From an uncultured Planctomycetia bacterium (GTDB lineage Bacteria; Omnitrophota; Gorgyraeia; Gorgyraeales; Gorgyraeaceae), in the NCBI GenBank assembly GCA_964415355.1, contig CAYPYS010000003.1, positions 68,156-132,155 of the forward strand: a DNA stretch of 64,000 bases, in the 5' to 3' direction. Below are positions 468 through 64,000 of this stretch, one piece after another. The translations under genes were made by a program, and so were the position numbers. The first letter of the stretch is position 1, and the number at the start of each line of letters is the position of its first letter. The notes under the pieces were generated by a model that searched no databases, was not told where the DNA came from, and was given only the letters and a program-made list of their open reading frames with translations.

Positions 468-504
468 TAACTTTACACTTTAACGTTGTTAAAGTGTAAA
501 GTTA
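468..504. repeat. palindromic intergenic element copy 1 (perfect 16-bp arms)
   Basis: taactttacactttaacgttgttaaagtgtaaagtta; supplies trxA stop. Confidence 0.9.
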
Positions 505-822
505 AGCAAGCATTTCCTCTATCTTTTCTGTAATATTATCCTTAGAGGCAACTCCTACGACTCTTGTAAATTCCTTTCCATCCTTGAATAATATAATAGT
601 AGGTATATTCATCACGCCGAACTTTGTAGCAACAGCCATTGCGTCGTCTATATTGAGCTTCGCGACCTTGCATCTTCCTTTGTACTCGTTCGCTAGCTGC
701 TCTATAATAGGGGCTATCATCTTGCATGGCATGCACCACGTCGCCCAGAAATCCACGATTACAGGTTTGTCTGATTGCAAAACCTCGGCTTCGAAATTTT
801 CTTGTCCCAGTTGCAACATCAT
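502..822 (-). CDS. trxA: thioredoxin
   Basis: WCMPCK active-site motif, ~107 aa from MM start; stop codon is the terminal TTA of repeat copy at 468..504. Confidence 0.8.
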   Translation of the reverse strand: MMLQLGQENFEAEVLQSDKPVIVDFWATWCMPCKMIAPIIEQLANEYKGRCKVAKLNIDDAMAVATKFGVMNIPTIILFKDGKEFTRVVGVASKDNITEKIEEMLA

Positions 823-1646
823 TCTCTCCCTTCTCTGTCTCCTGGCCCTATAATACACCCGGTAGGACACTTTTTAACACAGATGTCCAATGCTTTTGCA
901 TCGTTCGTCTTTTTATAATCCAATCTTGATAGGTTATTCTCTACAATGAACGCGCCCTTCGAGAGCTTTTCGCAAACCTTACATGCAATACAACCTGCCT
1001 TGCATGCATTTTTCACAAAAGTTATTTTGTCGCGAGACAGGCACTTAACATAATACATTTCTCTTGCATCTTCAAGAGAAATAATATCTTTAGGACAAGT
1101 AGCCACGCATTTGCCACATGCAGTGCATTTATCAGGGTCGACTACAGGAATACCGGCTTTCCTCATGTGGATAGCGTCAAAAGGACATATCGCAACGCAA
1201 TCCCCAAAACCAAGACATCCAAATTTACATATTTTCTGGCCATCGGCGATCAAGCTCGCTGCTCGGCAAGTCTGAACACCTTCGTATAAAAACTTGTCCT
1301 TCGCATTCTTGCCTCCGCCGCACTTGACCTGTGCTATCTTTTTCTGCACAGAGACCCTCTCGGTGCCAAGTATCTCTGCTATCTTAAAATACACTTCTTC
1401 CCCGCCAGCAGAACAACTAGTCAGACTCGCGTCTCCTTTTGCGATAGATTCTGCCAATGCAGCGCATCCTGCTTTTCCGCAGGCCCCGCAATTAGAGCCC
1501 GGTAGCGCCGAAAGCACCCTGTCTATCTTGGGGTCGACTTCGACTCTGAATATCCTGGAGGCAAAAGCCAGGCCCAATCCAAAAAGAACGCCCATGCTCA
1601 ACATTATAATAATAGGCACGATCATATTAAAACCTGAATCCTGCAA
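819..1646 (-). CDS. rnfB: Rnf complex subunit B (N-terminal TM, Fe-S, two 4Fe-4S ferredoxin motifs)
   Basis: CGACGKAGC plus CKFGCLGFGDCVAICP and CTACGKCVATCP motifs. Confidence 0.85.
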   Translation of the reverse strand: MQDSGFNMIVPIIIMLSMGVLFGLGLAFASRIFRVEVDPKIDRVLSALPGSNCGACGKAGCAALAESIAKGDASLTSCSAGGEEVYFKIAEILGTERVSVQKKIAQVKCGGGKNAKDKFLYEGVQTCRAASLIADGQKICKFGCLGFGDCVAICPFDAIHMRKAGIPVVDPDKCTACGKCVATCPKDIISLEDAREMYYVKCLSRDKITFVKNACKAGCIACKVCEKLSKGAFIVENNLSRLDYKKTNDAKALDICVKKCPTGCIIGPGDREGRE

Positions 1647-2235
1647 ATCCCATAAATGCCATTGACATAAGAGAAGCTACGATAAAAGCTATAGGCATAT
1701 CCTTAAAAGGCTTTGGCACGTCACAAAGTTCAAGCCTTTCGCGTATGCCTGACATAAAAAGTAACACTATTGTAAAACCTATTCCCGCGCAGAAACCTTG
1801 AGTCACACAAAATAAGAAACTCTCTATAAAGCTCTCCTGGACCTTAAGAAACATCTCACTGTTTAAAACTGCCACGCCAAACACAGCGCAATTCGTAGTA
1901 ATGAGGGCGAGGTAGATTCCAAAGACCCTGTATAGAGCCGGGCTAAACTTCTGTATAAACATCTCTATGAGCTGCACAAAACTCGCGATCACCAGTATAA
2001 ATGACAAGGTGCGCAAATATTCTATGTGGAAAGGTTTCAATAAAAAGCTATACACTGCCCAGGTAATAATCGAAGAAGCGGTCATAACAAATGTCACAGC
2101 AAGTCCCATATAAAAAGCAGAGCGACTCTCTTTTGATACGCCTATAAACGGGCAAAGGCCCAGAAATTTAGAGAGAATAAAATTATTAATAAATATAACA
2201 CTTATCGCTATCATTAAAAACTGATTGAATTCCAT
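1627..2235 (-). CDS. rnfA: Rnf complex subunit A
   Basis: Polytopic 202 aa, strong RnfA/NqrE similarity (GLCPFIGVS, TNCAVFG). Confidence 0.9.
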   Translation of the reverse strand: MEFNQFLMIAISVIFINNFILSKFLGLCPFIGVSKESRSAFYMGLAVTFVMTASSIITWAVYSFLLKPFHIEYLRTLSFILVIASFVQLIEMFIQKFSPALYRVFGIYLALITTNCAVFGVAVLNSEMFLKVQESFIESFLFCVTQGFCAGIGFTIVLLFMSGIRERLELCDVPKPFKDMPIAFIVASLMSMAFMGFAGFRF

Positions 2236-2237
2236 TG

Positions 2238-2825
2238 TTATTTCCTCGTCACATGATTCACAATGCCTATCAACAACCCTATGACCAAAAGCGCGCCAGG
2301 CGCAAGTATGAATAAAATAGCTGGTTCAAATCCCTTAACGATCACAAGCCCTGCTAATGTCCCATTGCCCAAAGACTCTCTTATTGCTGAGATAAGAACA
2401 AGGGCCAACGTAAAACCAACCCCCATACCAAGTCCGTCAAAGATGGCCCTTGTTACGCCGTATTTTGACGCAAAGGCCTCTGCCCTGCCCAGTACAATGC
2501 AATTCACTACAATAAGCGGGACGAATATACCCAATGACTTTGATAATGCTGGAAAATACGCCTTCATAACCAGCTCGACTATGGTAACAAACGTAGCTAT
2601 GATGACAATAAAACAGGGTATCCTTATTCTTTTTGGTATAAAATCCCTGATGCTCGAGATGATGATGTTCGAACCGAGCATCACAAAGGTAGCCGCAATA
2701 CCCATGCCGAATCCGTTTCCTACACTGGTCGAGACTGCCAATGTCGGGCACAAACCCAGCGCTAGCCTGAAAGTCGGGTTCTCGCGGATAATACCTTTTA
2801 GGAATTCCTGGAATAGTTTTTTCAT
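2238..2825 (-). CDS. rnfE: Rnf complex subunit E
   Basis: LALGLCPTLAVS, GIFVPLIVVNCIVLGRAEAFA, RsxE-like. Confidence 0.9.
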   Translation of the reverse strand: MKKLFQEFLKGIIRENPTFRLALGLCPTLAVSTSVGNGFGMGIAATFVMLGSNIIISSIRDFIPKRIRIPCFIVIIATFVTIVELVMKAYFPALSKSLGIFVPLIVVNCIVLGRAEAFASKYGVTRAIFDGLGMGVGFTLALVLISAIRESLGNGTLAGLVIVKGFEPAILFILAPGALLVIGLLIGIVNHVTRK

Positions 2826-2827
2826 TT

Positions 2828-3760
2828 CTATCTCTTGCCGTACACCCTTGTCTTTGTATACCTATCTATAATAGGCACCATGGCGTTCATAAAAAGTATT
2901 GCATACGAAACACCTTCTGGATACCCGCCTCTTAATCTTATAACTGCTGTCAATACGCCGCATCCTATACCAAATATGATCTTTCCTTTCCTGGTAAGCG
3001 GCCGTGTAACATAGTCTGTCGCCATGAAAAAAGCACCCAACACTAAACCACCTGTCAGAAAGTGAAAAATAAAATCACCTTTTAAAAGACCATCCCCTCC
3101 GAAAATCCAGACCAGTATCATTGTTGTGCCTATAAAACTCGCGGGTATGTGAAAAGATATGATCTTTGTCATAAGCAAGACTGCAGCACCTATCAATAAA
3201 AGCAATATAGAGACCTCTCCTATGCAGCCTCCGTGATTTCCAAGAAAAAGGTCCACATAAGAAAAGACTTGGGTGGTTTCTTTTGCTAAAGGCGTTGCGG
3301 TTGAAACAGCATCAGGAAACCATCTCGGGTTTTTCCACGTGGTCATATACACTGGCCACGAGATCTGTAAAAATACCCTGCCGATAAGAGCGGGATTGAA
3401 AATATTGTGACCCAGCCCGCCAAAGATCTGCTTTCCTATGACAATGCTAACTACGCCTCCGACTACAGGAAGCCACAGAGGCATCTCGGGCGGGAGATTG
3501 TACGCCAGAAGTAATCCTGTTAGAAAAGCGCTCCCGTCTAAAATAGCCTTTGGATCTTTATTTCTGAGTTTCAAAAATATAAACTCGCTTACAATGCAAG
3601 ATATGATACAGAGAAGCGTGACCTTTAAACTCGAGAGGCCAAAAATGTATATACCTGCGACTCCTGCCGGTATAAGCGAGAGTATCACGATATACATGAT
3701 CCTCTGCGTTGTAAGAGGTGATTTAATATGCGGAGCTGAGGAAACGGTTAATTTGTTCAT
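2828..3760 (-). CDS. rnfD: Rnf complex subunit D
   Basis: Aligns along full length with RsxD (SAFLTGLLLA, GGLGHNIFNPALIG, STATPL flavinylation motif, IDRYTKTRVYG). Confidence 0.9.
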   Translation of the reverse strand: MNKLTVSSAPHIKSPLTTQRIMYIVILSLIPAGVAGIYIFGLSSLKVTLLCIISCIVSEFIFLKLRNKDPKAILDGSAFLTGLLLAYNLPPEMPLWLPVVGGVVSIVIGKQIFGGLGHNIFNPALIGRVFLQISWPVYMTTWKNPRWFPDAVSTATPLAKETTQVFSYVDLFLGNHGGCIGEVSILLLLIGAAVLLMTKIISFHIPASFIGTTMILVWIFGGDGLLKGDFIFHFLTGGLVLGAFFMATDYVTRPLTRKGKIIFGIGCGVLTAVIRLRGGYPEGVSYAILFMNAMVPIIDRYTKTRVYGKR

Positions 3761-3777
3761 AGCAATCTCTGAGAGTT

Positions 3778-3818
3778 CTTAAGTTTACATTTCAACAACG
3801 TTAAAGTGTAAACTTAAG
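3778..3818. repeat. element copy 2 (AAGTTT subfamily)
   Basis: cttaagtttacatttcaacaacgttaaagtgtaaacttaag, between rnfG and rnfD. Confidence 0.9.
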
Positions 3819-3824
3819 CAATGA

Positions 3825-4436
3825 CTACCTCTCTATTATCTCCAATCCTTTTTCTCTTATCGAATCTAGCACGGCCTCGCTGGATATAGTCGCTCCGGAA
3901 ATAGCATGGATGTTAGCGTCTTCGCAAAATTCCAGCTTATAAATATTGCATCCGTTAAACTGTTCGGTAAAATAAGGAAGTCTTTCCCTCTCAGCTTCTC
4001 TCTCTTGTAAAAAAAACTGTTTTAACGCCTTTGATATTGTCTTATCAGATACTACCTCTGTTATTTTAGCCCCGAGGCCCGGAGTTTCGTTCTGACTGAG
4101 CATCCTTACTCCGGTTATGGTGCCGTCTTTTTTTATCCCTACCATTGTCTCGATGACACTGGAATAACCATATTTTTTTGCGATAAACACATAGCCCTGC
4201 GGCCTGCCGCTGGACCCCTTGAACACTTCCCAGTATTTTACAGCGCCATTCTCTTCTACAGGTTCAATACGGTCCCCCACTGTCGCCGGGATTACCTGCT
4301 CCAAGGCATTCTCTTTGACCATAGCCTCTTGCATTTCTATTTTTGGTTTTGTAATAAAATAAACACTGGCCAAGACAGACGCTGCCACTAAATTCACCAA
4401 ACCCAGCACCAATGTAAACCGCAAAATACTCTTCAT
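3825..4436 (-). CDS. rnfG: Rnf complex subunit G (FMN-binding)
   Basis: Single N-terminal TM, ETPGLGAKI and SGATIS flavinylation motifs; lies upstream of rnfD (non-canonical order). Confidence 0.85.
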   Translation of the reverse strand: MKSILRFTLVLGLVNLVAASVLASVYFITKPKIEMQEAMVKENALEQVIPATVGDRIEPVEENGAVKYWEVFKGSSGRPQGYVFIAKKYGYSSVIETMVGIKKDGTITGVRMLSQNETPGLGAKITEVVSDKTISKALKQFFLQEREAERERLPYFTEQFNGCNIYKLEFCEDANIHAISGATISSEAVLDSIREKGLEIIER

Positions 4437-4443
4437 AATCCCC

Positions 4444-4480
4444 TAACTTTACACTTTAACGTTGTTGAAATGTAAAGTTA
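4444..4480. repeat. element copy 3 (opposite orientation)
   Basis: taactttacactttaacgttgttgaaatgtaaagtta, between rnfC and rnfG. Confidence 0.9.
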
Positions 4481-5785
4481 ACTCTTTGCTTTTCTCTTGG
4501 CTAACTTTATAAGCTGCAATAGCGGTATCTTCGACGGGCATACATAGTCGCACGAGCCGCATTCAATGCAGTCAAGCGGACTATAAGAATTCGCTATGTC
4601 AAATCTATTATTTTGCGCACCGAGGCCGATCATGCATGGCATGAGACCTGCGGGGCACGCTTCAATGCATCGCGAGCATCTTATGCAACTTACCTCACCC
4701 GGAGATTTAAAACTTTCGTCCAAGACAAGGATGCCCGAAGTCCCTTTTACAACCGGCGCATCTAAACTAAATTGCGCAATCCCTGTCATAGGCCCACCCA
4801 TTATAATCTTATAAATATTGCGCTCGGCATCGAATCCGCAAAATTCCAATAAATCTTTTATGGGCGTGCCTATCCTCGCTAAGACATTCTTAGGCTCTTT
4901 TAAAAAACTGCCTGATACCGTAACAACCCTTTCATACAATGGCTTGCCGAAATATACTGCCTCATAAATAGCAAAAACCGTCTGAACATTGCTTACAACG
5001 CATCCTATGTCAAGCGGCAACCCACCAGAAGGTACCTCGCGATTAAAAAGCGTCTTTATAAGCTGCTTTTCACCCCCTTGCGGATACTGTGTCTTTAGCT
5101 TAACTATCCTGACGCCTGACGCCTGAGGCCTGAGGCTGATTAGCGCATTTCTCAGTTTTTCTATAGCATCTATCTTATTGTCTTCTATCCCTATTATTAT
5201 ATCTTTTACGCCCAGCGCACAGGCAACAAGATCAATCCCCAGAAGGATCTCTTTTGGCCGCTCAAGCATCAAGCGATGATCACAGGTAAGAAGAGGCTCG
5301 CATTCTGCACCATTTATAATCAAGGTGTCAATATTTTTGCCACGGGGAAGACTCAGCTTAACGTGCGTGGGAAACGCCGCCCCTCCCAATCCTACGATAC
5401 CCGCATCTTTTACGATATTCACGATCTCTTCTTTCGAAAAAGAAGGCTTATCCGTTCGTGAACCTGAAAATGCCTTGATATCTTTGCCGTCAGATTCTAC
5501 TGTAATAGACTTAAAAGAACCAGCAATGGGATGAACATTATCTTCAATAGCAATCACCTTGCCGGATACGCTAGAATGCAAGTTGCTGGAGATAAAGCTC
5601 TTGCCCCTGGCAATAAGAGAGCCTGTCTTTACGCTGTCCCCAATATTAACAATTGGTTCTGAAGGCAAGCCTGCGTGTTGACTCAAGGCGAGCATGACCT
5701 TTTTGGGTAAAGGTATTCTCTCGATCTTCTTTAGTATCGTAGATTCTTTAAGTTCGGGTGGGTGTATAAAATTCATCTTGGACAT
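4478..5785 (-). CDS. rnfC: Rnf complex subunit C
   Basis: 435 aa, two CxxCxxCxxxCP ferredoxin motifs (CIRCSRCIEACP, CIECGSCDYVCP), NADH-binding fold. Confidence 0.9.
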   Translation of the reverse strand: MSKMNFIHPPELKESTILKKIERIPLPKKVMLALSQHAGLPSEPIVNIGDSVKTGSLIARGKSFISSNLHSSVSGKVIAIEDNVHPIAGSFKSITVESDGKDIKAFSGSRTDKPSFSKEEIVNIVKDAGIVGLGGAAFPTHVKLSLPRGKNIDTLIINGAECEPLLTCDHRLMLERPKEILLGIDLVACALGVKDIIIGIEDNKIDAIEKLRNALISLRPQASGVRIVKLKTQYPQGGEKQLIKTLFNREVPSGGLPLDIGCVVSNVQTVFAIYEAVYFGKPLYERVVTVSGSFLKEPKNVLARIGTPIKDLLEFCGFDAERNIYKIIMGGPMTGIAQFSLDAPVVKGTSGILVLDESFKSPGEVSCIRCSRCIEACPAGLMPCMIGLGAQNNRFDIANSYSPLDCIECGSCDYVCPSKIPLLQLIKLAKRKAKS

Positions 5786-6033: not shown

Positions 6034-6070
6034 TAACTTTACATTTCAACAACGTTAAAATGTAAAGTTA
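6034..6070. repeat. element copy 4
   Basis: taactttacatttcaacaacgttaaaatgtaaagtta; supplies MFS stop. Confidence 0.9.
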
Positions 6071-7892: not shown

Positions 7893-7929
7893 TAACTTTA
7901 CACTTCAACGTTGTTGAAATGTAAAGTTA
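7893..7929. repeat. element copy 5
   Basis: taactttacacttcaacgttgttgaaatgtaaagtta. Confidence 0.9.
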
Positions 7930-9976: not shown

Positions 9977-10013
9977 TAACTTTACATTTCAACAACGTTA
10001 AAGTGTAAAGTTA
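9977..10013. repeat. element copy 6; encodes NFTL-stop of ApbE
   Basis: taactttacatttcaacaacgttaaagtgtaaagtta. Confidence 0.9.
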
Positions 10014-13042: not shown

Positions 13043-13103
13043 ATACGCTTATTATAATACATGGGGAGGTATTTTTGGAAGTAAATATATTTTTGACCTG
13101 CAT

Positions 13104-13139
13104 AACTTTACACTTTAACGTTGTTGAAATGTAAAGTTA
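13104..13139. repeat. element copy 7, abutting tRNA-Asp 3' end
   Basis: taactttacactttaacgttgttgaaatgtaaagtta. Confidence 0.9.
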
Positions 13140-13216
13140 TGGCGGGGACGACGGGGCTCGAACCCGCGACCTCAAGATCGACAATCTTGCGTTCTATCCA
13201 AACTGAACTACGTCCC
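13140..13216 (-). tRNA. tRNA-Asp (anticodon GTC)
   Basis: GGGGACGTAGTTCAGTTGGATAGAAC..CAAGATTGTCGATCTTG..GGTTCGAGCCCCGTCGTCCCCGCCA. Confidence 0.8.
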
Positions 13217-13243
13217 CAAAATTTTCTCTTTTAACGTGCGATA

Positions 13244-13377: not shown

Positions 13378-13827
13378 TCAGAGCTTTCCTGCCGCCATCA
13401 TTATGAATACCATTACAAATAGCGCAACTGTTTCGATGATACCGAGGACCATAAGGTAGTTTCCAAAGCCTTTACCTGTCTCTGCCATTGCGTCAGCTGC
13501 TGAAGCACCTGCCTTGCCCTGCATCCACGCGGACATGCCCATCGCAATACCGCAGAGAATCCCTGCGGCCCACATGAACTGGCCTTTCTTCGCTAGTTCT
13601 ACAAGCGTATTCATCACTATCATGCCATAGATCGTCTGTGTTAGCGGTGCGCCGACAAATACAGTGAGCACGAAAGGCGCGTTCTTATTCTGCGCAAAAC
13701 ACTTCTTCCATGAACCCACTGCTGCCATGCCTGCCGCGCCTGTGCCGAGCGCCGAGCCTATTGCGGCAAATGCCAGAGATGCTGCGATCCCCAGATCCTT
13801 AAACTGCAATAATAAATTCGCATCCAT
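13378..13827 (-). CDS. ntpK: V-type ATPase subunit K (proteolipid)
   Basis: Start MDANLLL with AGGAGG RBS; two-hairpin proteolipid with conserved Glu. Confidence 0.85.
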   Translation of the reverse strand: MDANLLLQFKDLGIAASLAFAAIGSALGTGAAGMAAVGSWKKCFAQNKNAPFVLTVFVGAPLTQTIYGMIVMNTLVELAKKGQFMWAAGILCGIAMGMSAWMQGKAGASAADAMAETGKGFGNYLMVLGIIETVALFVMVFIMMAAGKL

Positions 13828-13828
13828 A

Positions 13829-15583
13829 TCAACTTGCCTCCTGTCTAAAAGGTTTATATTCGACTCCTGACCACTCCATATTAAGATGACTTGAAAACTC
13901 CAGGACATTCAGACGGACCCCATGCACCAGGACAGCCATCGCGCCCAATAAAATGTTCAATGTGTGACCGAAAATAAGGACAAGCGCTGTAAAAAATCCG
14001 GAAATTATATCCCCGTATCCGATGCCTAGCGCCATCTGATTAAACGCGTCTGCCACAGCAACCGTTGCTGCTCCTACAGCGAACAAACGTATATATGAAA
14101 CTGTGTCGGTAAAAGCATTTATTACATTAAGAAGCAGACCTCCTATCCCGGAACCAATCGTCTTAAAAATGTTTTTGGTGGGATTCGTGCAAAGAATAAC
14201 GAGGCTGGCACCACAAATAAAAAGGTATTTACCTGATTCGGGAAATATCTCTCCCAATATCAGCATCCTCGCCAGAAAATACGCCGCCCACAACATACAC
14301 ACCCACCCTGCCTCTGAAAACGCCTTAAGTGAAGGCATCTTACGTATGAATCTCCACGTATGCGCGATGCTCAGATGAAGCGCGCCTATAAAAAAACAAA
14401 GCGCTTGGATATTTCTGCTCTCTCTTAAAAAAGGAAGAAGCGGCTTTACAGTCGGAGGAAGCCATGACTGACCAAAAAAAGTGCCGGTCAAAACACCCCA
14501 TATAATCGTAGAGATACTCAAGAAATACGTAAGTATAAAAATAGATTTATCCTTGATCCTATTTTTAAACCTAGCGTGGCAAAAAAGATTGGCGATAAAA
14601 AATACGACTCCGTATCCTGCGTCACCTATAAGCATCCCGAAAAATACCGAGAAGAACAACAGAAACCAGAAACTTATATCCATCTCTCTGTATCCGGGTA
14701 TGGTCTTTATCACCTGGAACACGGGCTTTATCATTTCTATCCAGCGCGGATTTTTTATTAAAGTCGGGACATTATCGCTTTCATCCGGATCTTCGACGAG
14801 AAGCCCCCACCTTTCAGCCTTTGTGCGCCTTTCAAAAGAATTAACAGCATGGACCGGACAATACCCTATGATGTACGAAAGGTTTTCGAATCTGCCCATG
14901 CCTGCACGCGCCCTGTTAAACTCCAGGATTGACTCAAGATGTCTCTTGTGAGATATTAGTAAATTTTTATATCCTGCCAATTCTATTAATCTTTTATCAA
15001 TACCGGAAAGTCTCTTTTTATGTTCTTTTTCCTCGGCGATCATCTCTCCTAAGCTCTTGGCCGGCATATTCAATGTGCCAAACTTTAAATCCATATCTCT
15101 CTGCGATATTATCGCGCAATAATGTACATTGCCTTTCTTAAAAAGTTTTTCCAGAATGACCTCGCCCGGCACTTCCTTTATCTGTTTTTTTGTAAGCCTG
15201 CAAAGATAAACTGACACTCCCCTACTCTTCAAATCATCTATAAACTCTGGATCAAAATCCCCCCACGCCTTCCATGTCTCTATGTCCTTGTTTATCTTTC
15301 TCAGGCTTTCCAGGATGATCTCTTTTTTGTCTACCAGGCTGACTGCCTCATGGGCTAATTTTCCAGGACCTTCGCTTAAATGTCTATTGTCTTTGGTGTT
15401 AGGCAATATATCTATGGCCTTTGAAATAGAGAGACATGTTCTCTCTACCTCTTTTATGCCTTCCCCCTCCGGGGCATTTTGGTGCTCTATATGTAGAAGC
15501 CCTAGTTTTCCTAAAGATGTAAGCGCCTCCTCGACATCTTTGGCTTGAACCACAAGGGTTATTTTTTTCATCCTGACGATCAT
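13829..15583 (-). CDS. ntpI: V-type ATPase subunit I
   Basis: 584 aa, soluble N-terminal half plus multi-TM C-terminal half. Confidence 0.85.
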   Translation of the reverse strand: MIVRMKKITLVVQAKDVEEALTSLGKLGLLHIEHQNAPEGEGIKEVERTCLSISKAIDILPNTKDNRHLSEGPGKLAHEAVSLVDKKEIILESLRKINKDIETWKAWGDFDPEFIDDLKSRGVSVYLCRLTKKQIKEVPGEVILEKLFKKGNVHYCAIISQRDMDLKFGTLNMPAKSLGEMIAEEKEHKKRLSGIDKRLIELAGYKNLLISHKRHLESILEFNRARAGMGRFENLSYIIGYCPVHAVNSFERRTKAERWGLLVEDPDESDNVPTLIKNPRWIEMIKPVFQVIKTIPGYREMDISFWFLLFFSVFFGMLIGDAGYGVVFFIANLFCHARFKNRIKDKSIFILTYFLSISTIIWGVLTGTFFGQSWLPPTVKPLLPFLRESRNIQALCFFIGALHLSIAHTWRFIRKMPSLKAFSEAGWVCMLWAAYFLARMLILGEIFPESGKYLFICGASLVILCTNPTKNIFKTIGSGIGGLLLNVINAFTDTVSYIRLFAVGAATVAVADAFNQMALGIGYGDIISGFFTALVLIFGHTLNILLGAMAVLVHGVRLNVLEFSSHLNMEWSGVEYKPFRQEAS

Positions 15584-16191
15584 ATCAAGGCTTCCTCTAA
15601 TTTTTCACTTTTATTCTTCGCGATCTTCGAACGGCCCACGGCATTAGTCTGCTGGTCACCAAGACATATTCTTATGAGCCGGATATTCTCCATCGCCTCA
15701 GGTATCTTTATTTTTTCAAAGAGATTGACGCGCTGAGCGGTTATCCTTAATTCATGCCCTAAGATCTTCAATTGTTCCTTGAATATTTTCTCTTCCTCTA
15801 ATAATACAACAAGCTGTCTTATCTTTTCGATCGCCCTATCCACCCACAGCGGAGTCAAAAACATATCATAATCAGGTTCGTCAAAATCCTCTCCTTCAAA
15901 AGTCGGCATATCGATCCCGGCTATATTTAATTCTCCTATGCGGATTCTCCTGGGCTTTATCCATTTAGAAACATAATCACCTGGTTCATTCAGGAGACTT
16001 GCCCATTCATTTATCTCGTTTTCCGCGCTGTATATCTCCTGTAGCTTCAGCTTTAATTTTTCGTGGATATGGTGTATCTCCAGCTGCAGTTGTTGTTTTT
16101 TTAATTGTAGGATAGGGAGGTAATGCGTGAATTGCTTCAGCGACTCGCGCTGTCTCTTTAGTTCGCCTTTTGTGAGTTTAATCTTTGCCAT
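15580..16191 (-). CDS. ntpD: V-type ATPase subunit D
   Basis: [21 protein letters not shown] coiled-coil, 203 aa. Confidence 0.85.
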
Positions 16192-17479
16192 GCGGCCAGA
16201 ACTCCTGCACCAGTTCTGATTTTATTCCCACTTCGAATGATTCAAAATGCTCCGCCAGGATCTGCCAGCCCAGGTCCAATGCATTCTCGAGGGTGACATT
16301 TACGGATAGATCCATCATCTTCCGTTCGAATGCCTGACCGTATCTCAAAAGTTTTTTATCCCACTCGCTCATTCTAAATCCCATTGCCTGTTTTTCCAAT
16401 GTCGAGCGATAATCGGCAAAAAGCTGGATCATCCTGTTCATGACTATCCTGTGGTCTTTCCTCGTGCGTCCATTTACCTGCTGCTTGAGACGACTAAGGG
16501 AACCAAACGGCTCTATGGATTTGTTTCTCAGGTAAAACTGTCCCTCTGTGATGTAACCGGTGTTGTCAGGCACTGGATGAGTAACATCGTCGCCCGGCAT
16601 CGTAGTGACAGCGAGCACTGTAATAGAGCCTGCTGTATCAAAATCAACTGCCTTTTCGTATCGACTCGCCAGCTGGCTGTATAGATCTCCGGGGTAACCC
16701 CTGTTTGAGGGAATCTGTTCCATTGTAATCGATATTTCTTTTAGTGCGTCGCAAAAATTTGTCATATCGCTTAAGAGTACCAGCACGCGCTTTCCTTTTA
16801 ACGCAAAACCTTCCGCGACAGCCAGGCTGATATCAGGCACGAGAAGACATTCGACCGTAGGGTCAGAAGCAGTGTGGACAAAAAATATAGATCTCGAAAG
16901 CGAACCGTGTTTTTCCAGCGTATCCCTGAAGAAAAGATAGTCGTCGTATTTAAGGCCCATGCCCCCTAAGATTATCAGATCTACTTCTGCCTGGGTCGCG
17001 ATGCGGGCAAGCACATCATTATAGGGTTCTCCGGGCACTGAGAATATGGGAAGTTTTTGCGATTCCACCAGCGTGTTGAATATATCTATCATGGGGATGC
17101 CCGTACGGACCATCTTTCGAGGTATGATCCTTTTCGCGGGGTTTACAGGGGGCCCTCCTATCTCTGTCATATTCTCGACGAGCTCAGGGCCATTGTCCCG
17201 CGGCAGGCCTGCGCCGTTAAATATACGACCCATGAGATTTTCGCTAAAAGAAATCCTCATTGCATGCCCTAAAAATCTTACCTTGTCGCCCGTAGATACG
17301 CCTCTCGAGCCTGCGAATACCTGTAAATATACACGTTCACCATCGATCCTTATGACCTGGGCTAAAGACTTTCCTGCCCTGGAGGCTATCTCGGCAAGAT
17401 CCTTATAGCCTATATCCTTTGCTTCTACTGTCACGACATTCCCTGCTATCTGTATTATGCGGTTATATATTTTCTGCAT
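16178..17479 (-). CDS. ntpB: V-type ATPase subunit B
   Basis: 433 aa non-catalytic nucleotide-binding subunit. Confidence 0.9.
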
Positions 17480-19223
17480 GGCCCCGTCCCGATTTCTTCA
17501 GTCTTTCAGAAACTGTTGTTTTTATATCTTCTTCCTTTTTGGGAAAATCCCCCGCATCCTGATCTACCGAATTCCACTCTATAAACTTCTGTCTTAAATT
17601 CTGGAAAAACTTCCTTGCTGAATCCTTGTCTCCAAATTCAAACCGGCTTTCCAGGATCTCGTAGATCACGCGAAATACATGCTTCTGCCTCTCCTTTATC
17701 GTCGCTGCATCCACCTCGTCAAACGCATTCTGCTGCAAGTAAACAGAATCCAGAAACTCTGCCTTTAAATATATGATAAAATCTGAGAGAGACGTCCCTT
17801 CTTCGCCCACGACCTTCATCATCTGGTTTACCTCATTCCCTTTCCTTAAAATACGCTGAGCCGTCTGTATTTCTTTCTCGTCTATAAAACTTTTATATTT
17901 GCTCCAGCTTTCCATGGGATCTATCGCAGGATATTTTCGCGCGTTTGCGCGGTTATTCGAAAGTCCGTGGAATGCTCCGACCACCTTCAATGTGGCCTGG
18001 GTCACTGGTTCCTCAAAATTTCCTCCGGCGGGACTTACGGCTCCTCCTATAGTGACAGAACCAATGCTTCCGTCGCGCAATTTCACCAGGCCTGCGCGTT
18101 CGTAAAAAGAAGCTATCCTGGTCTCAAGATACGCAGGGAACGCTTCTTCGCCGGGTATCTCTTCAAGCCGGCCTGACATCTCGCGCATGGCCTGCGCCCA
18201 GCGCGACGTAGAATCAGCTATCAAGAGAACATTAAGGCCCATCTGGCGATAGTATTCTGCGATAGTAACAGCCGTATACACACTCGATTCACGCGCAGCA
18301 ACAGGCATTGAACTGGTGTTGCAAATAATCACTGTGCGTTCTATAAGAAACCTTCCGGTCCTGGGATCTTTGATCTCAGGGAATGTCCTGAGGGTTTCAA
18401 CGACCTCTCCAGCCCTTTCCCCGCAAGCTGCGATAATGACTATATCTACCTCTGCATGTTTACTTATCAGCTGCTGCAAAACCGTCTTCCCCGAACCAAA
18501 AGGTCCCGGCACGCAATACGTACCTCCGCGAGCAACGGGCATCAGGGTATCAACTATCCTTATTTTTGTAACAAGAGGGTCCTGCGGTTTGAGTTTTTCC
18601 GCATACGCTGATATCGGTACCTTGACAGGCCATATCTGCTGCATCGCGGCATCATGAATATTGCCATGTTCATCTCTGAGTTTTGCGATTGTGTGTTTTA
18701 AATTATATTTACCTTTTTTTACTATTGCTTCTATCTCTAACTCACCATTAAGTCTAAACGGCGCCATTATCCAGTGCTGGAAAATACCTTCTTTTACAAA
18801 TCCAAGCTTACCGCCAGCCCTGCATCTTTCGCCTTTTTTAACAGATGGGGTAAATTCCCATTTAGCTTCGTCAGGCAACGCCTCCAGGTACACGCCACGC
18901 TTCAAGAAAAAACCGCATCGCTCTGCTAGCTGCGGCAATGGATTTTGTAACCCATCGAATATCTGCCCCAAGAGCCCGGGGCCTAATTCAACGGACAGGA
19001 GCTCATCTGAAAATTCAACCTTCTCCCCTACCTTTAAACCTTTTGTATCTTCATATACTTGCAGCTCTGCCTTATTGCCTCTGACGCGGATCACCTCGGA
19101 CTTCAAGCGCTCTTCATTGTGCAGAATAAATGCGACCTCGTTCTGCACGACATAATCATCGAACTCCACTGCCACCATGTTTCCGTTTATACCCGCAATC
19201 TTCCCGATTCTTCTACTTCTCAT
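17463..19223 (-). CDS. ntpA: V-type ATPase catalytic subunit A
   Basis: [10 protein letters not shown]-loop, 586 aa. Confidence 0.9.
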
Positions 19224-19251
19224 CCCCTCTCCTTCTACTCTATAATTTCAC

Positions 19252-19782
19252 TTAAGCAGCGGTGATCAGATCCTGTAAAACCTGCATACCATCACTTGAA
19301 TTTATCTGATCCCAGCGAATTAAAATCTGAAGCTTCAAAGCATAGGTCACTAAATAATCTATATCAAAATAATGGGCCTTGCCAAGATCATCCAGCTTCT
19401 CCCACCTCAATCGATCCAAAGAAACCTCTGCCTCAAGAGGAGAATCTTGATCTACGACCCATTGCGCAAAACCCGCCATAAAAAGATCCGTAGAATCTTC
19501 TCCCCGAATATATTTACTTACATCCTTACCTTGCTTATTGGCCCGCACCCTTATTATCTCATTTACAAGAGTCATGTTAAACTTGTTCCATTCCCTAAGA
19601 GTCAGGCAACGGCTATCAGGCGATTCTAGAGACACGAGTTTTATTTCTTTTATGATATCCAGATCGCCCGGAGATAACTGCTCTTCGCATATGGAAAGAA
19701 AATGCGCATAAGTAAAAGGCGTCTTCATTCCAAATTCAAGCAATGGCAGGCTGGCTATCAGATAATAGTAAGCTTCTCTCAT
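19252..19782 (-). CDS. V-ATPase-associated hypothetical protein (position of Chlamydia CT309/DUF2764)
   Basis: 176 aa between subunits E and A, as in chlamydial-type V-ATPase operons. Confidence 0.35.
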   Translation of the reverse strand: MREAYYYLIASLPLLEFGMKTPFTYAHFLSICEEQLSPGDLDIIKEIKLVSLESPDSRCLTLREWNKFNMTLVNEIIRVRANKQGKDVSKYIRGEDSTDLFMAGFAQWVVDQDSPLEAEVSLDRLRWEKLDDLGKAHYFDIDYLVTYALKLQILIRWDQINSSDGMQVLQDLITAA

Positions 19783-20381: not shown

Positions 20382-20409
20382 GATAATATCTCCGTATTTT
20401 ATTACCACC

Positions 20410-36866: not shown

Positions 36867-36883
36867 GAAGCGTTTAGCTTATT

Positions 36884-47094: not shown

Positions 47095-47131
47095 TAACTT
47101 TACATTTCAACAACGTTAAAGTGTAAAGTTA
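47095..47131. repeat. element copy 23
   Basis: consensus copy. Confidence 0.9.
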
Positions 47132-48394
47132 GCGCCAGGTGAGCCAGAGAAAGATGTAAGCTGATGATACTGCGGCGAGGGTAAACGGAAGGCCTATCTT
47201 TAAAAAATCCAAGAAACCTACTTTGTAGCCACGCTCTCTGAGCATTCCCATTGAGACAATATTGGCTGAAGCGCCTATAGGAGTTATATTCCCCCCTAGA
47301 GTAGCGCCTATCAATAGGCCAAATAAGAATAACTCTGGCGCAGCGCCCATGCTGGATGCAAGGATCTTTGCGACAGGTATCATGGTTATGACATAGGGTA
47401 TGTTGTCTATAAATGCAGAGAATAAAACCGAGGCCCACACGATCAAGGTAAACGTAAGGAAGATGTTCCCACCTGTTACATCTGATATAAAATTTGCCAG
47501 GTCCTCTATTATGCCCACGTGGCTAAGCGTACCTATGAGGATAAATACACCTATCAAGAACAGAAATGTCCTCCAGTCTATATTTTTTATAAATGAAAAC
47601 TCCTCTTTACTGGAGATCTTATGCCAGAGAACCCCTATGCCGCCAAAAAATAGGCAGATCAGTGCGATCGAATAATAGGGCTTTTGCGTGATAAAACTGG
47701 AAACTCCTAGACTAGCTATCATAAGAGACATAAGAATAGTTGGCATCCATGTTTTAACCTTTACCTGCTCGATCCTTTCTGCGCGCTGCCTGAAACGCCT
47801 AAAAATAAGATACAAAACTACGAATGAAGCCACTGCGCCTATTTCCACTGCAAATGCAATGCCAGGTCTTCCTTTCATCCAGAAAAAGTCCATGAAATTC
47901 ATTCTATGGAGCATGGCAAGAATGATGCTGGGCGAATCTCCTATCATTGTCGCAGATCCCTGAAGATTAGAGCTCACGGCTATGCTTATCAAAAACGGAA
48001 TCGGATTGGCTTTTAATTTTTTGGCGACCTCGAATGCGATCGGCGCCACTATAATGACCGTTGCGACATTTTCTGTAAAACTGGATATGAAGCTTGAGAG
48101 AAGCGCGATGAACAAAATCGCCATTCCTACATTTTTGGATTTAGAGACGAGCCTTGTTGCAAGAAATCCAGGCACATTGGAATATATAAATAAGCCTGAG
48201 AGAATCATTGAGCCTAAAAATACTCCCAAGACATTAAAGTTTATGCTCGACAGTGCTTGTTTTAGATCAATTGCCTGGGAAATTAAAAGTATGGCAACGC
48301 CGCTGAATAGCGGGATAAGTGGATTGACTTTGCGGTTGAATAATATAACAGAAGCGTAAGTCAGCAGAAATATAGTAACTACAAAAATCTTCAT
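47129..48394 (-). CDS. ArsB/NhaD-superfamily anion permease
   Basis: 421 aa polytopic with internal symmetry. Confidence 0.45.
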   Translation of the reverse strand: MKIFVVTIFLLTYASVILFNRKVNPLIPLFSGVAILLISQAIDLKQALSSINFNVLGVFLGSMILSGLFIYSNVPGFLATRLVSKSKNVGMAILFIALLSSFISSFTENVATVIIVAPIAFEVAKKLKANPIPFLISIAVSSNLQGSATMIGDSPSIILAMLHRMNFMDFFWMKGRPGIAFAVEIGAVASFVVLYLIFRRFRQRAERIEQVKVKTWMPTILMSLMIASLGVSSFITQKPYYSIALICLFFGGIGVLWHKISSKEEFSFIKNIDWRTFLFLIGVFILIGTLSHVGIIEDLANFISDVTGGNIFLTFTLIVWASVLFSAFIDNIPYVITMIPVAKILASSMGAAPELFLFGLLIGATLGGNITPIGASANIVSMGMLRERGYKVGFLDFLKIGLPFTLAAVSSAYIFLWLTWR

Positions 48395-49023
48395 GCTCCC
48401 CTGCTTTTCTCTGCCAGAAAGTACGTAAGCCTTTCTAGCTCCATAGAGAGATCTATATTTAAAATCTCTACATCTTTTGGGCCTCTCGACGCCCTGGGCC
48501 TTATAGGCGCAAAATTTAGTATGGCCTTGATCCCTGAAGAAACAAGGTTATCAATAACATCCTGCGCTGACTCATGCGGAACAGCAACGACCGCCATGCT
48601 TAATTTATTGGCGCTTACTATTTTTTTGAGGTCCTTTATATCTCTTATCTTAATCCCCTGCCTGACTTTGTCAATCTTTCTCTTGTCATTATCAAATGCA
48701 TACTTTATATTAAATCCCTGCCCCTTGAACCCCTTATAAGCAAGAAGCGCTGAGCCAAGATTGCCCACACCGACCAATGCAACAGCCCAATCTCTGTCTA
48801 TGCCCAGGATTTTTCTGAGCTGCTCCTTTAATTCCTCTATTATATATCCCCGGCCGCGCGTGCCAAACTGACCAAAATACGCAAGATCTTTTCTGATCTG
48901 CGCAGCACTGCAACCAGTAAGGCTCGAGAGTTCTTGCGAGGAAATCACGCTTGCATTTTTGGTTGATAAAAGTGCTCTATAATAAAGTGAAATCCTAGGG
49001 ATACTTAGAGATGGGATCTTCAT
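48391..49023 (-). CDS. rex: redox-sensing transcriptional repressor Rex
   Basis: AVVAVPHESAQDVIDNLVSSGIKAILNFAP Rossmann/winged-helix pattern. Confidence 0.8.
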   Translation of the reverse strand: MKIPSLSIPRISLYYRALLSTKNASVISSQELSSLTGCSAAQIRKDLAYFGQFGTRGRGYIIEELKEQLRKILGIDRDWAVALVGVGNLGSALLAYKGFKGQGFNIKYAFDNDKRKIDKVRQGIKIRDIKDLKKIVSANKLSMAVVAVPHESAQDVIDNLVSSGIKAILNFAPIRPRASRGPKDVEILNIDLSMELERLTYFLAEKSRGA

Positions 49024-49036
49024 GCTATTTTCGCAC

Positions 49037-49082
49037 GGTTACAAAAGGTACAAAAACTCTAAAAATCTGTACCTTCTGTACC
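49037..49082. promoter_or_regulatory. cluster of four GGTACA(AAAA) half-sites (two direct, two inverted) upstream of rex
   Basis: ggttacaaaa, ggtacaaaaa, then tctgtacc twice. Confidence 0.3.
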
Positions 49083-49119
49083 TAACTTTACATTTCAACA
49101 ACGTTAAAATGTAAAGTTA
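49083..49119. repeat. element copy 24
   Basis: taactttacatttcaacaacgttaaaatgtaaagtta. Confidence 0.9.
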
Positions 49120-50363: not shown

Positions 50364-50400
50364 TAACTTTACACTTTAACGTTGTTGAAATGTAAAGTTA
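50364..50400. repeat. element copy 25
   Basis: consensus copy; supplies cysK stop. Confidence 0.9.
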
Positions 50401-51868: not shown

Positions 51869-51908
51869 TTAAGTATACACTTTAACATTGTTGAAATGTA
51901 AACTTAAG
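51869..51908. repeat. element copy 26 (chimeric arms GTATAC / AAACTT)
   Basis: ttaagtatacactttaacattgttgaaatgtaaacttaag. Confidence 0.8.
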
Positions 51909-56048: not shown

Positions 56049-56092
56049 TGTAAGTATACCATACCCCCCTACCCTATGTCAAGAAGAAACCT

Positions 56093-56130
56093 AACTTTAC
56101 ATTTCAACAATGTTAAAGTGTATACTTAAG
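56093..56130. repeat. element copy 27 (chimeric arms AACTTT / GTATAC)
   Basis: taactttacatttcaacaatgttaaagtgtatacttaag. Confidence 0.8.
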
Positions 56131-57287: not shown

Positions 57288-57328
57288 CTTAAGTATACAC
57301 TTTAACATTGTTGAAATGTATACTTAAG
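57288..57328. repeat. element copy 28 (GTATAC subfamily)
   Basis: cttaagtatacactttaacattgttgaaatgtatacttaag. Confidence 0.85.
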
Positions 57329-60098: not shown

Positions 60099-60135
60099 TA
60101 ACTTTACACTTTAACGTTGTTGAAATGTAAAGTTA
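60099..60135. repeat. element copy 29; encodes cobA C-terminal 9 aa
   Basis: taactttacactttaacgttgttgaaatgtaaagtta. Confidence 0.9.
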
Positions 60136-62872: not shown

Positions 62873-63579
62873 ACATTTGTCTTGAGCGGCCTTGTGTGGA
62901 TACCACACTCGCCGCCGCATTTACTGGTGCCGATCCAGCGCCCGGCACGTTCATTGTCGTCGTTTGTGATTTTAGTGCACGGCGCGCACCCAAGCGAGCG
63001 GTAACCCTCGGCATATAGAGGATTCACTTTCACGCCATAAAGCGCCAGATATTGCCAGACCTCTCTTTCCTTCCATATAAGAATAGGATTTAATTTTATA
63101 AGCCCCTTGTCGCGTTCTTCTATTTCTTTAAAGTCAGTGCGTGTACGGCCTTCTGTACAGCGAAGTCCTGTAACCCAGCACGTAACACTCATTTCTTCTA
63201 TCGCGCGCTTGACAGGCTCTACCTTTAATATATCGCAGCATCTGTCAGGTTCGGTTTTGTATAATTCATCCGGGATAGCCGCGTCGTTTTTATAGACTTT
63301 TGTCTCAGGGTACTCAGCTACAACTTCATTCATAAACCGGACTGTCTCTTTTGGCTTAAACCTGGTTGTCACTACAAAACCTCGGATCTTTGGGTTCACA
63401 CGCTTTGCCAGATCCCATACTGCGACAGAATCCTTTCCAAGGCTATTCGCCACTACCAAGCCGTCTCCGTATTTTTCATAGGCCTCCTTTATGAGCTGCA
63501 GCGAGCGGTTCACCTTTTGTTTAAAATTCAATGTCTCCACCAACACCTTCAAGTCTTCCTGAGTTTCTAGTAAACTCAT
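62869..63579 (-). CDS. cysH: phosphoadenosine phosphosulfate reductase family protein
   Basis: LVVANSLGKDSVAVWDLA PP-loop; C-terminal Cys pair. Confidence 0.7.
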   Translation of the reverse strand: MSLLETQEDLKVLVETLNFKQKVNRSLQLIKEAYEKYGDGLVVANSLGKDSVAVWDLAKRVNPKIRGFVVTTRFKPKETVRFMNEVVAEYPETKVYKNDAAIPDELYKTEPDRCCDILKVEPVKRAIEEMSVTCWVTGLRCTEGRTRTDFKEIEERDKGLIKLNPILIWKEREVWQYLALYGVKVNPLYAEGYRSLGCAPCTKITNDDNERAGRWIGTSKCGGECGIHTRPLKTNV

Positions 63580-63594
63580 ACTCCCTCCTCCTGG

Positions 63595-63816
63595 TTAGAT
63601 CTGGTACTCTGGGGTTCCTAGTCTTCCGTATTTTACCCTGTTCCAGATGCGTTCATGTGCATAATACAAAAAAATCTTTACAAGATTCGCGCTTATACCA
63701 ACGACAAGCGACTCTTTGATATCTTTACTGTAGATATAAATAGCTATGATAGTTACTAGAAATGCGATTATACGCCAGGTAAATGCCTTAAAAAGAGATC
63801 GTTTTGGATGTTCCAT
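63595..63816 (-). CDS. DUF2061-like small membrane protein
   Basis: 73 aa, two TM; AGGAGG RBS. Confidence 0.4.
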   Translation of the reverse strand: MEHPKRSLFKAFTWRIIAFLVTIIAIYIYSKDIKESLVVGISANLVKIFLYYAHERIWNRVKYGRLGTPEYQI

Positions 63817-63938
63817 TTTTCCTCCTGATATATTACTATTACAATAGGATTAGTCGTGATTAGATTAAAAAAATAAGGGGTTAGTGTTCTTATTTGTTTT
63901 AAATCTCTACTAATCTAATCATATTTATAATAATTAAA

Positions 63939-63966
63939 GTATACCACATAACAAAATCATGTCAAG
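63939..63966 (-). promoter_or_regulatory. promoter TTGACA-N16-TGgTATACT (extended -10) for the sulfur/siroheme operon
   Basis: Minus-strand reading ttgacatgattttgttatgtggtatact; followed by 11-bp inverted repeat tgattagatta/taatctaatca at ~63872..63930 in the leader. Confidence 0.45.
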
Positions 63967-63974
63967 CATTTTTT

Positions 63975-64000
63975 TAACTTTACATTTCAACAACGTTAAA
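63975..64000. repeat. element copy 30 (truncated by window end)
   Basis: taactttacatttcaacaacgttaaa. Confidence 0.8.

Follow-up and report, generated by a model that had tools for sequence, protein, structure and literature searches.

The window analysed here is a stretch of 64,000 nucleotides from an uncultured Planctomycetia bacterium (contig CAYPYS010000003.1) and is part of the 140-kb metagenome contig JGI 3300009374 Ga0118720_1000061. Its genes, several of which were identified by Pfam, are all located on the minus strand except one (36884-39145), consistent with an earlier note on this DNA, made from the letters alone, which had described them as essentially co-directional. The GC skew is uniformly negative on the plus strand and, because transcription and GC skew are co-oriented, the directions of transcription and replication are inseparable within the window. 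Between the genes lies a palindromic element of 37 bp that recurs at 31 sites. It represents a previously undescribed, lineage-specific family of non-autonomous palindromic DNA repeats, similar to the repetitive extragenic palindromic (REP) sequences but outside the definition of REPs and their REP-associated tyrosine transposases (RAYTs). Its most distinctive feature is the fusion to stop codons, which was not part of the account in the earlier note.

The copies were detected with the consensus of that note at no more than three mismatches, with a looser scan for 37-mers, and with a covariance model built from the copies. The consensus gave 23 matches, as compared to 0.00 expected from 100 shuffles, and the looser scan identified 27 full 37-mers. 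The covariance model identified 31 sites in the window, i.e. the 27 full copies, two variants (one of 35 nt at 27679 and one with a 1-nt loop at ~39115-39151), one disrupted copy, and one copy cut by the window end, in agreement with the about 31 copies in 64 kb, starting at 468, that had been counted before. Both orientations are represented, as had also been reported, with AAC/AAT loops on the plus strand in 16 and GTT/ATT loops in 11 of the full copies. The copies are 41 to more than 7000 bp apart with genes between them. The only adjacent pair is 39115/39156, and the other copies are singlets more than 600 bp apart.

The core of the element consists of two 17-bp arms and a 3-nt loop, with the consensus TAA(C/G)TTTACAYTTYAAC-RWY-GTTRAARTGTAAA(C/G)TTA, and contains TAA in all three frames on both strands. 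It is often 39-41 bp long when flanking pairs are included, which extend the stem as C-TAAC...GTTA-G or GCT-TAAG...CTTA-AGC in the window and as CTTAAG...CTTAAG in the genome of a sister species, the metagenome-assembled genome (MAG) CAYULJ01, labelled "uncultured Planctomycetia". The arms are A+T-rich and the stem contains three to four G-C pairs among its 17. Since the consensus is near-symmetric and has a single G.T and a single C.A position whichever way it is oriented, the two strands fold almost equally well; the RNA folding energies of the two orientations were -10.7 and -12.4 kcal/mol (z ~-4.8), and the stem strength ranges from -11 to -18 kcal/mol across copies. In the subtypes TAACTTTAC, TAAGTTTAC, TAAGTATAC, and TAAGTTCAC, the arms are nearly always matched. 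Among 46 distinct sequences, 8 of the 17 pairs have changed on both sides and 95.3% of the cells are paired, which was matched by none of 500 shuffles, and slid pairing registers fall far short of the true register. The covarying pairs include C4:G34 to G4:C34, T6:A32 to A6:T32, and T7:A31 to C7:G31.

The covariation of the arms fits pairing within one strand, of RNA or of single-stranded DNA, better than it fits the binding of a dimeric protein. The palindrome could also be read as two half-sites in double-stranded DNA for a nucleoid-associated protein or a global regulator, and the symmetry of the 17-bp half-sites with their fixed spacing of 3 bp agrees with this, as do the positions of copies 27679, 51870, 56092, and 63975, centred ~58-63 bp upstream of the transcription starts predicted for strong promoters, and of a single copy just upstream of a gene start in an unrelated genome of 37.8% G+C. 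We consider this reading very unlikely, however, because covarying arms are required by intrastrand pairing but not by a dimer, several half-site variants exist within one genome, the apical parts in relatives are unrelated self-complementary sequence, and most copies are located at 3' ends, far from promoters. Isolated half-sites are also essentially absent, since 30 of 33 matches to the left arm and 28 of 29 to the right arm are located inside elements, and the isolated matches are not enriched in genes. The same counts effectively refute the suggestion, to which we assign practically no probability, that the element represents paired, inverted DNA uptake sequences like those of Neisseria or Haemophilus, which there double as terminators. 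Uptake sequences have densities similar to the ~1 per 2 kb observed here, and the location after genes would also suit them, but they are mostly single copies that also occur inside genes, and abundant single half-sites of this kind were not found.

All 31 sites are located at gene junctions and none is inside a gene, although the coding fraction is 0.945, and the copies make up about one third of the non-coding DNA (30 x 37 nt of ~3.5 kb). The earlier note had placed the palindrome in roughly half of the intergenic gaps, which understated the pattern: copies are present at 28 of 73 junctions, but at 27 of the 35 whose spacer is 25 nt or longer, as compared to 1 of the 38 shorter ones. Only junctions of non-overlapping genes are occupied, while coding sequence and tightly coupled junctions are spared, and no copies are found in runs of overlapping genes such as the eight genes at 13378-20408, the ABC cluster, and rnfD-E-A-B. 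The occurrence of copies inside operons was supported by Pfam for rnfC/rnfG (4444), rnfG/rnfD (3780), pyrF/pyrE (21023), and pyrK/pyrD (22603). The copy assigned to ntpE/pyrE (20410) does follow pyrE, but the gene next to it has no Pfam match and the label "ntpE" was not confirmed. The order of the rnf genes is C-G-D-E-A-B (819-5785), with the FMN-binding G subunit preceding D; the commonly cited order is C-D-G-E-A-B. Among 108 copies classified by context, 97 are in tandem, 8 in convergent, and 3 in divergent junctions.

The relationship to stop codons was analysed for 118 oriented copies, 26 from the window and 92 from other loci, almost all of the latter in the sister MAG. Of the 26 window copies, 18 contain the stop codon of the upstream gene, at offset 0 in 16, +13 in one, and +29 in one. 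Over all 118 copies, the offset is 0 in 51, +13 in 6, and +29 in 7. The three TAA frames are thus used unequally, which argues against random insertion into the 3' ends of coding sequences. The genes without an element end with TAA in about half of the cases (25 TAA, 16 TGA, and 9 TAG). On the downstream side, promoter-like sites that score 11-12/12 begin 4-26 nt after copies 9977, 27679, 33445, 51870, and 56092, and a Shine-Dalgarno sequence with a start codon follows within 7-23 nt in about 12 other cases. The copies are listed below by window position and without strand.

468-504: full copy whose arms are perfect, with a GTT loop on the plus strand; the thioredoxin gene (minus strand) has its TAA stop in the TTA at 502-504, and the next gene starts 14 nt beyond.
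3780-3816: full copy at the rnfG/rnfD junction, with the TAG stop of rnfG 11 nt before it; kept in the sister MAG.
4444-4480: full copy at the rnfC/rnfG junction that forms the rnfC stop, with the rnfG start 7 nt on; missing in the sister MAG, which has a CGTATA-rich tract instead.
6034-6070: full copy that forms the stop of an MFS transporter gene and lies ahead of the rnfC promoter region; its orthologue in the sister has the compensatory changes C4G/G34C and T6A/A32T.
7893-7929: full copy that forms the stop of a DUF4126 gene, upstream of the tRNA-Thr region.
9977-10013: full copy in which the ApbE gene ends at an internal TAA (offset +13), followed by a sigma-70-like promoter and tRNA-Phe.
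13103-13139: full copy that abuts the encoded CCA 3' end of tRNA-Asp (13140-13217).
20410-20446: full copy that forms the pyrE stop; kept in the sister MAG.
21023-21059: full copy at the pyrF/pyrE junction that forms the pyrF stop; in the sister orthologue, the loop is flipped and the stem is GTTCAC/GTGAAC.
22603-22639: full copy at the pyrK/pyrD junction that forms the pyrK stop.
23441-23477: full copy of the TAAGTATAC subtype, upstream of pyrK and 21 nt past the stop of a 410-aa gene; the sister MAG has a degenerate copy.
27677-27715: shortened variant whose loop is 1 nt; a 12/12 sigma-70-like promoter begins 4 nt downstream, ahead of the PyrR RNA site; full-length counterpart in the sister MAG.
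29644-29680: full copy that forms the stop of the trehalose-phosphatase gene.
31959-31995: full copy 13 nt past the stop of a YggT gene, with the start of an otsA-like gene 15 nt on.
33445-33481: full copy that forms the stop of a TP_methylase gene, with a promoter-like site (11/12) 22 nt downstream.
34188-34224: full copy of the TAAGTATAC subtype, 20 nt past the glmS stop; missing in the sister MAG (CGTATA-rich tract).
36092-36128: full copy 9 nt past the TGA stop of a YjeF_N gene, with the glmS start 20 nt on.
36812-36867: disrupted or decayed copy with arms ~23 nt apart, in the only divergent spacer of the window; intact in the sister MAG (locus L009, 6710).
39115-39151: divergent variant with a 1-nt loop that contains the stop (39143-39145) of the sole plus-strand gene; first of two adjacent copies at a convergent junction.
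39156-39192: full copy that forms the stop of the Memo/AMMECR1 gene (minus strand); second copy at the convergent junction.
40865-40901: full copy that forms the stop of a radical-SAM gene and adjoins a G+C-rich hairpin of a second repeat family (40836-40855); the relative L075 has a native TAA at the same codon and no element.
43259-43295: full copy that forms the lgt stop, with the next gene start 13 nt on.
44733-44769: full copy that forms the stop of a thymidylate-synthase-like gene; L075 lacks the element here, and its two genes abut or overlap.
47095-47131: full copy that forms the stop of a CitMHS transporter gene; L075 has a native TAA at the same codon and no element.
49083-49119: full copy 10 nt past the stop of the HcyBio gene and upstream of rex; several distant relatives hold family members with other apical stems at this junction.
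50364-50400: full copy at the cysK-like/HcyBio junction that forms the cysK stop; the junction is empty in at least seven relatives.
51870-51906: full copy with mixed arms that forms the stop of an ABC ATPase gene, with the start of a 12/12 promoter-like site 9 nt on.
56092-56128: full copy with mixed arms, 7 nt past the stop of an SBF transporter gene; an 11/12 promoter-like site starts 9 nt downstream.
57290-57326: full copy of the TAAGTATAC subtype that forms the stop of the NIR_SIR gene.
60099-60135: full copy into which the upstream TP_methylase gene reads as far as the third-frame TAA (offset +29), so that the copy encodes ~10 of its C-terminal codons.
63975-64000: copy cut by the window end and complete in the source contig (L139, 9569-9605), which forms the stop of the ThiI gene; a promoter-like TTGACA box, identified by eye, is located 9 nt downstream.

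The proteins that end within copies 60099-60135 and 9977-10013, in other frames of the element, have tails of 4-10 residues that the element encodes and that are possibly mis-annotated. Close to copy 27677-27715, the pyr gene cluster is headed by a PyrR-binding RNA leader (Rfam RF00515, 57.5 bits) at 27524-27636 on the minus strand, downstream of a perfect sigma-70-like promoter (27674-27647).

To place the family in a wider context, we used a genome scan with one genome per species, in which the element was present in at least three MAGs among the matches listed. The taxonomy of these genomes is that of the MAG labels only. Copies were found on at least about 45 contigs of CAYULJ01 among the matches listed; of the other MAGs listed, one is labelled Candidatus Omnitrophota and one, of 37.8% G+C, contains a single copy. 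That copy (L024, 4816-4852) is perfect, with the sequence TAACTTTACATTTTAAC-GTT-GTTAAAATGTAAAGTTA, and is located just upstream of a Shine-Dalgarno sequence and ATG. The MAG has no similarity to the window, and the copy reflects either a binning artefact or the occurrence of the family at low copy number in another lineage. On the source contig, the flanks, covered for ~10 kb past either window end, contain six more copies in 9.6 kb to the right and one in 8.9 kb to the left. The source samples are marine and oxygen-depleted, and several marine metagenome assemblies hold proteins identical to those of the window.

Six blocks of the window are syntenic with the sister genome, with nucleotide identities of 83-87%. 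Among the 19 sites within these blocks, 16 have a copy in the sister genome with exactly the same boundaries. The other three are 4444 and 34188, where the sister has a CGTATA-rich tract, and 51870, which is placed at a synteny break. Tracts rich in CGTATA/TCGTATA were observed in the sister at L018 ~2490-2575 (rnfC/rnfG) and L009 ~4040-4140 (glmS/TP_methylase). Of 13 clean orthologous pairs, 12 share the loop orientation (chance ~0.005 by our own estimate), and the copies are better conserved than the surrounding spacer across ~16% divergence. Because the sister copies are located at conserved gene 3' ends, the sites are old and stable rather than recent insertions. The earlier note had taken restriction to the window, or copies that form part of conserved gene 3' ends in relatives, to speak against a family of inserted elements. 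The second of these is what the sister genome displays at the 16 shared sites, yet the family extends well beyond the window.

A different pattern was observed for the sequences of the copies. Over the 37 positions, orthologous copies differ on average at 4.2 and non-orthologous pairs between the two genomes at 4.1, whereas the difference between paralogues of one genome is only 1.8 in the window and 2.7 in the sister. The same changes, i.e. the swap from C4:G34 to G4:C34, T11 to C, and C20 to T in the loop, recur at many orthologous sites. Since paralogues are closer to each other than orthologues and the changes are recurrent, the copies have undergone concerted evolution, which requires copying and not site-by-site selection. 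The comparison thus shows copies that have been stationary since the expansion of the family, with orientations mostly kept and sequences homogenised within each genome.

The origin of the copies was traced in more distant relatives, a set of 80 metagenome loci that encode the neighbouring HcyBio protein at 73-90% amino-acid identity. The locus L075, which shares the gene order of the window over 13 genes, contains no copy. At its CitMHS/HAD and radical-SAM/Memo junctions, the native TAA is the same codon as the TAA of the element, and at the thymidylate-synthase/nitroreductase junction the genes abut. In at least seven relatives, the cysK stop is followed directly by the Shine-Dalgarno sequence of HcyBio. 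Since these junctions are empty and compact in the relatives, the copies in the window are insertions, as the earlier note had supposed, and the alignments show the first TAA of the element in the place of the native stop at comparable junctions. With the covariance model, 15 sites were identified in 805 kb, 13 of which are located in the ~795 kb of HcyBio-relative loci, with single copies in L008 and L024. This corresponds to ~1 per 55-60 kb, as compared to ~1 per 2 kb in the window (31/64 kb). The sites in the relatives retain the basal stem TAA(C/G)(T/G)T(T/G)ACA, while the apical stem and loop are swapped for other self-complementary sequence, such as TCTGAC-ATT-GTCAGA and TTCGTGCC-T-GGCAC. 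The presence of several of these sites at the HcyBio/rex junction implies that the family is old. The ~30-fold expansion that the densities show is specific to the lineage of the window and its sister, the family having multiplied in the common ancestor of the two species by insertion at empty junctions.

Other repeats were observed at these loci. Some relatives contain palindromic families with GTAG cores, e.g. AACCGCGTAGGTTGCC...GGCAACCTACGCGGTT, that resemble canonical RAYT-type REPs (L065 4008, 7521, and 10778; L062 409 and 1434; L067 75; L059 2354; L075 18878), some of them at junctions that carry the main element in the window. A second repeat family, a G+C-rich hairpin GTCATTCCCGCG-N3/4-CGCGGGAAT, occurs near the main element at variable distance and orientation, in the window at 40836-40855, where a T-run follows on the plus strand, and in L009 (~3317-3340), L041, L002, and L039. 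Upstream of a rex-like gene (48391-49023), a conserved palindrome (G)GTACA/GTTACAAAA...TTTTGTAAC/TGTACC is located at ~49030-49078, which is also present in L062-L074 just past the HcyBio gene and is a candidate Rex operator. It is placed beside copy 49083, on the opposite side of the element from that in the relatives, and as it is a separate sequence, the idea that the element itself is a Rex operator was dropped.

The main rival to a functional role is that the copies are tolerated, functionless relics of a selfish or neutral element, which landed in one burst wherever this was tolerated, after the stops of non-overlapping genes, and which persist because precise deletion is rare, the hairpin being incidental. 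The empty junctions agree with this in that the genes of the relatives work without the element, as does the presence of unrelated palindromic families at the same kinds of junctions. Occupancy also tracks permissiveness, with 1 of 38 tight junctions occupied, and the sole copy in a divergent spacer of the window is decayed. We nevertheless consider this explanation possible but rather unlikely. The copies are better preserved than the spacer sequence around them across ~16% divergence, their stems have been maintained by compensatory change, and ~2% of useless DNA would be expected to be under deletion pressure in a genome that is 94.5% coding. Moreover, the homogenisation within genomes implies ongoing activity, and the hairpin in the sister genome is biased in stability towards the sense strand.

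That bias bears on whether the element acts at the RNA or the DNA level. The earlier note had concluded from the mixed orientations that orientation is not tied to transcription, and had argued from this for a DNA-level or symmetric-hairpin element. The orientations are mixed, but either orientation gives nearly the same RNA stem, so this does not exclude a role at the RNA level. Nor is the orientation random. In the sister genome it is biased 2:1, and the sense strand forms the more stable hairpin in 40 copies, as compared to 15 for the other strand (p = 0.001). The sense strand contains 65 G.U pairs versus 37 C.A mismatches. In sister copies with fully Watson-Crick arms, the loop orientation is unbiased (14 vs 12), while in the asymmetric form it is 26 vs 7 towards G.U in the transcript. 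These G.U and orientation biases hint that there may be selection on the transcript.

The inference in the note that the element is not a simple terminator was supported, as the stem has 3-4 G-C pairs in 17 and no U-tract. Only copy 6034 passes a scan for intrinsic terminators, and what comes after the stems is G/A-rich and resembles a Shine-Dalgarno sequence. The number of terminator-like sites shows no enrichment over shuffled sequence (23 vs 18.0, 16 vs 16.6, and 16 vs 15.4), and the genome appears to have almost no canonical terminators. This scarcity would be expected if the element were primarily a host RNA element, i.e. a factor-dependent terminator or RNase processing hairpin in a cistron "punctuation" system, with a dedicated protein at the conserved base and the spread in DNA secondary. 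The hairpin begins exactly at the stop codon, copies are found before strong promoters and at a tRNA 3' end, a family member is present at the HcyBio/rex junction in many relatives, and across lineages the sequence of the basal stem is kept while the apical stem keeps only its pairing, all in line with such a role. However, the near-identity and concerted change of the copies need copying and could not result from selection site by site, the relatives manage with ~1 copy per 55-60 kb, and termination would be harmful within single-complex operons (rnfC/G/D), where copies are present. The mixed orientation and the conserved internal C.A mismatch, which is needless for a simple hairpin, also speak against it, and a primarily RNA-level element seems quite unlikely to us.

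With moderate confidence, we favour a non-canonical, REP-like mobile palindrome that is homogenised at the DNA level and whose co-transcribed hairpin probably serves as a 3'-end or processing structure. A trans-acting enzyme would recognise the conserved basal stem TAA(C/G)TTTACA and drive the homogenisation by DNA-level copy-correction or re-copying. Each copy would be co-transcribed with the gene whose stop it carries and fold into a 17-20-bp hairpin at the 3' end of the cistron, which would most likely serve as a 3'-end structure, whether as a barrier to exonucleases, as a site of processing, or as a weak terminator or insulator ahead of the promoter or cistron that follows.

Several observations weigh against this interpretation. 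The RAYT search, though weak, the Pfam analysis of 84 kb of the contig, and the search for repeats of the size of insertion sequences (IS) identified no mobilising enzyme, and contigs from the same population revealed no insertion polymorphism, differing only in scaffold N-gaps, so that they offer no evidence for current mobility. A target-site duplication is unreadable, as TA, TAA, or TTAA belong to the palindrome. The 3 of 108 classified copies in divergent (5'-5') spacers make no sense for a 3'-end role, and the sense-strand bias in stability is not significant in the window (17 vs 9, p = 0.17). Furthermore, the sense strand is also G+T-rich and transcription and GC skew are co-oriented, so that strand-specific mutation or replication-strand effects could explain the G.U and orientation biases. 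Apparent indels at L053 ~1258-1267 and L055 ~5127-5136 between contigs of the same population represent scaffold gaps (N runs) and misjoined sequence rather than polymorphisms.

A bolder version of the favoured reading, to which we give a small chance, is a domesticated, genome-wide punctuation of cistrons, with a stop-fused hairpin at nearly every non-overlapping gene boundary of very long co-directional transcripts and one dedicated, sequence-specific enzyme that would bind the conserved base of the hairpin and both process or terminate the RNA and keep the copies uniform. It would be a bacterial counterpart to tRNA punctuation in mitochondria.

The origin, upkeep, and function of small palindromic repeats in bacteria are disputed, and the family amounts to a natural experiment of unusual clarity. 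A single repeat fills about three quarters of the real spacers in a genome that is otherwise streamlined (94.5% coding). The fusion to the stop codon, the frozen positions, the homogenisation within genomes, and the empty outgroup sites separate the history of insertion from positional selection and copy-correction, and in combination they predict a trans-acting enzyme. When uncultured PVC/Omnitrophota-like genomes are annotated, the element can serve as a practical marker of where genes end, but it is also a source of mis-called starts, stops, and C-terminal tails.

The earlier note had described the element as REP- or MITE-like, of which the dispersed palindromic family holds, while two defining features of REPs, the tetranucleotide and the inverted doublets, are lacking. 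As in the REP and REPIN-RAYT systems, the element is a short, imperfect, extragenic palindrome with many copies (31 sites/64 kb). In the refined definition, REPs have a 5' GT[A/G]G tetranucleotide beside the palindrome (PMC3686654), but no GTAG or GTGG is present on either strand of the consensus, and the flanks contain only C/G or CTTAAG stem extensions. REPINs consist of two inverted REPs that form a larger hairpin, and the RAYT gene is flanked by REPs (PMC3337134; PMC3686654), whereas the copies here are singlets apart from the single adjacent pair (39115/39156). A phmmer search with the E. coli RayT gave nothing below E = 0.1 in 0.44 Mb (window and sister) or in 1.16 Mb (all loci), a weak search in that it used a single query against an incomplete genome. 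No Y1/HUH transposase family was identified by Pfam in the called genes over 84 kb of the source contig, and the absence of a transposase noted before was upheld for ~40 scanned window proteins and the called flank genes. No repeat longer than ~160 bp, and hence no IS, was found in the 0.44 Mb of window and sister loci. Miniature inverted-repeat transposable elements (MITEs) are typically 50-500 bp long and have terminal repeats that match an IS and a non-palindromic interior, whereas the element is 37-41 bp long and wholly self-complementary. It ends with TA, TAA, or (C)TTAA(G) on both sides as part of the palindrome, and the empty sites of the relatives are too diverged downstream to reveal a target-site duplication. 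The irregular spacing, with genes in between and both orientations, also differs from a CRISPR array.

Rfam 15 at gathering thresholds identified only tRNAs and the PyrR site in the window, and a permissive scan over four copies gave chance-level matches only. No copy was found in viral contigs or in plasmid and phage collections. In the available literature on palindromic or intergenic repeats in Omnitrophota, including a 2026 complete-genome preprint on the phylum, no account of the element was found.

The Correia (NEMIS) elements of Neisseria are intergenic insertions at TA targets that are co-transcribed, and their inverted ends fold into hairpins that are cut by RNase III and alter mRNA levels. 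They are 100-155 bp long, with 26-bp terminal repeats and a non-palindromic core that contains promoter and IHF sites, while the whole element here is a 37-bp hairpin fused to stop codons. The inverted repeats at the 3' ends of chloroplast mRNAs and the RNase III sites of the T7 early genes are hairpins without a U-tract that function as processing and stability signals rather than as efficient terminators. Like the element, they are located after cistrons of long polycistronic transcripts, but they are neither dispersed near-identical repeats nor mobile, and the analogy is functional only. In E. coli, a stable REP hairpin within ~15 nt of the stop codon reportedly affects the translation of the upstream gene and the fate of the mRNA, as described by Liang, Rudd and Deutscher in 2015. 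Such stop-proximal REPs are a G+C-rich subset in E. coli, whereas here this placement is the rule, with weaker stems and a hairpin that starts from the stop itself in most copies. REPs in general have short G+C-rich stems, while the element has A+T-rich 17-bp arms, starts as a stop codon, and occurs ~1 per 2 kb. REPs have reported effects on mRNA stability and transcription, and the element resembles REPs and REPINs in being a 20-40-bp imperfect palindrome that is extragenic, numerous, species-specific, vertically inherited, and persistent at its sites, and in forming sequence populations that co-evolve within a genome (PMC3686654; PMC3337134; 10.1101/2021.07.10.451892).

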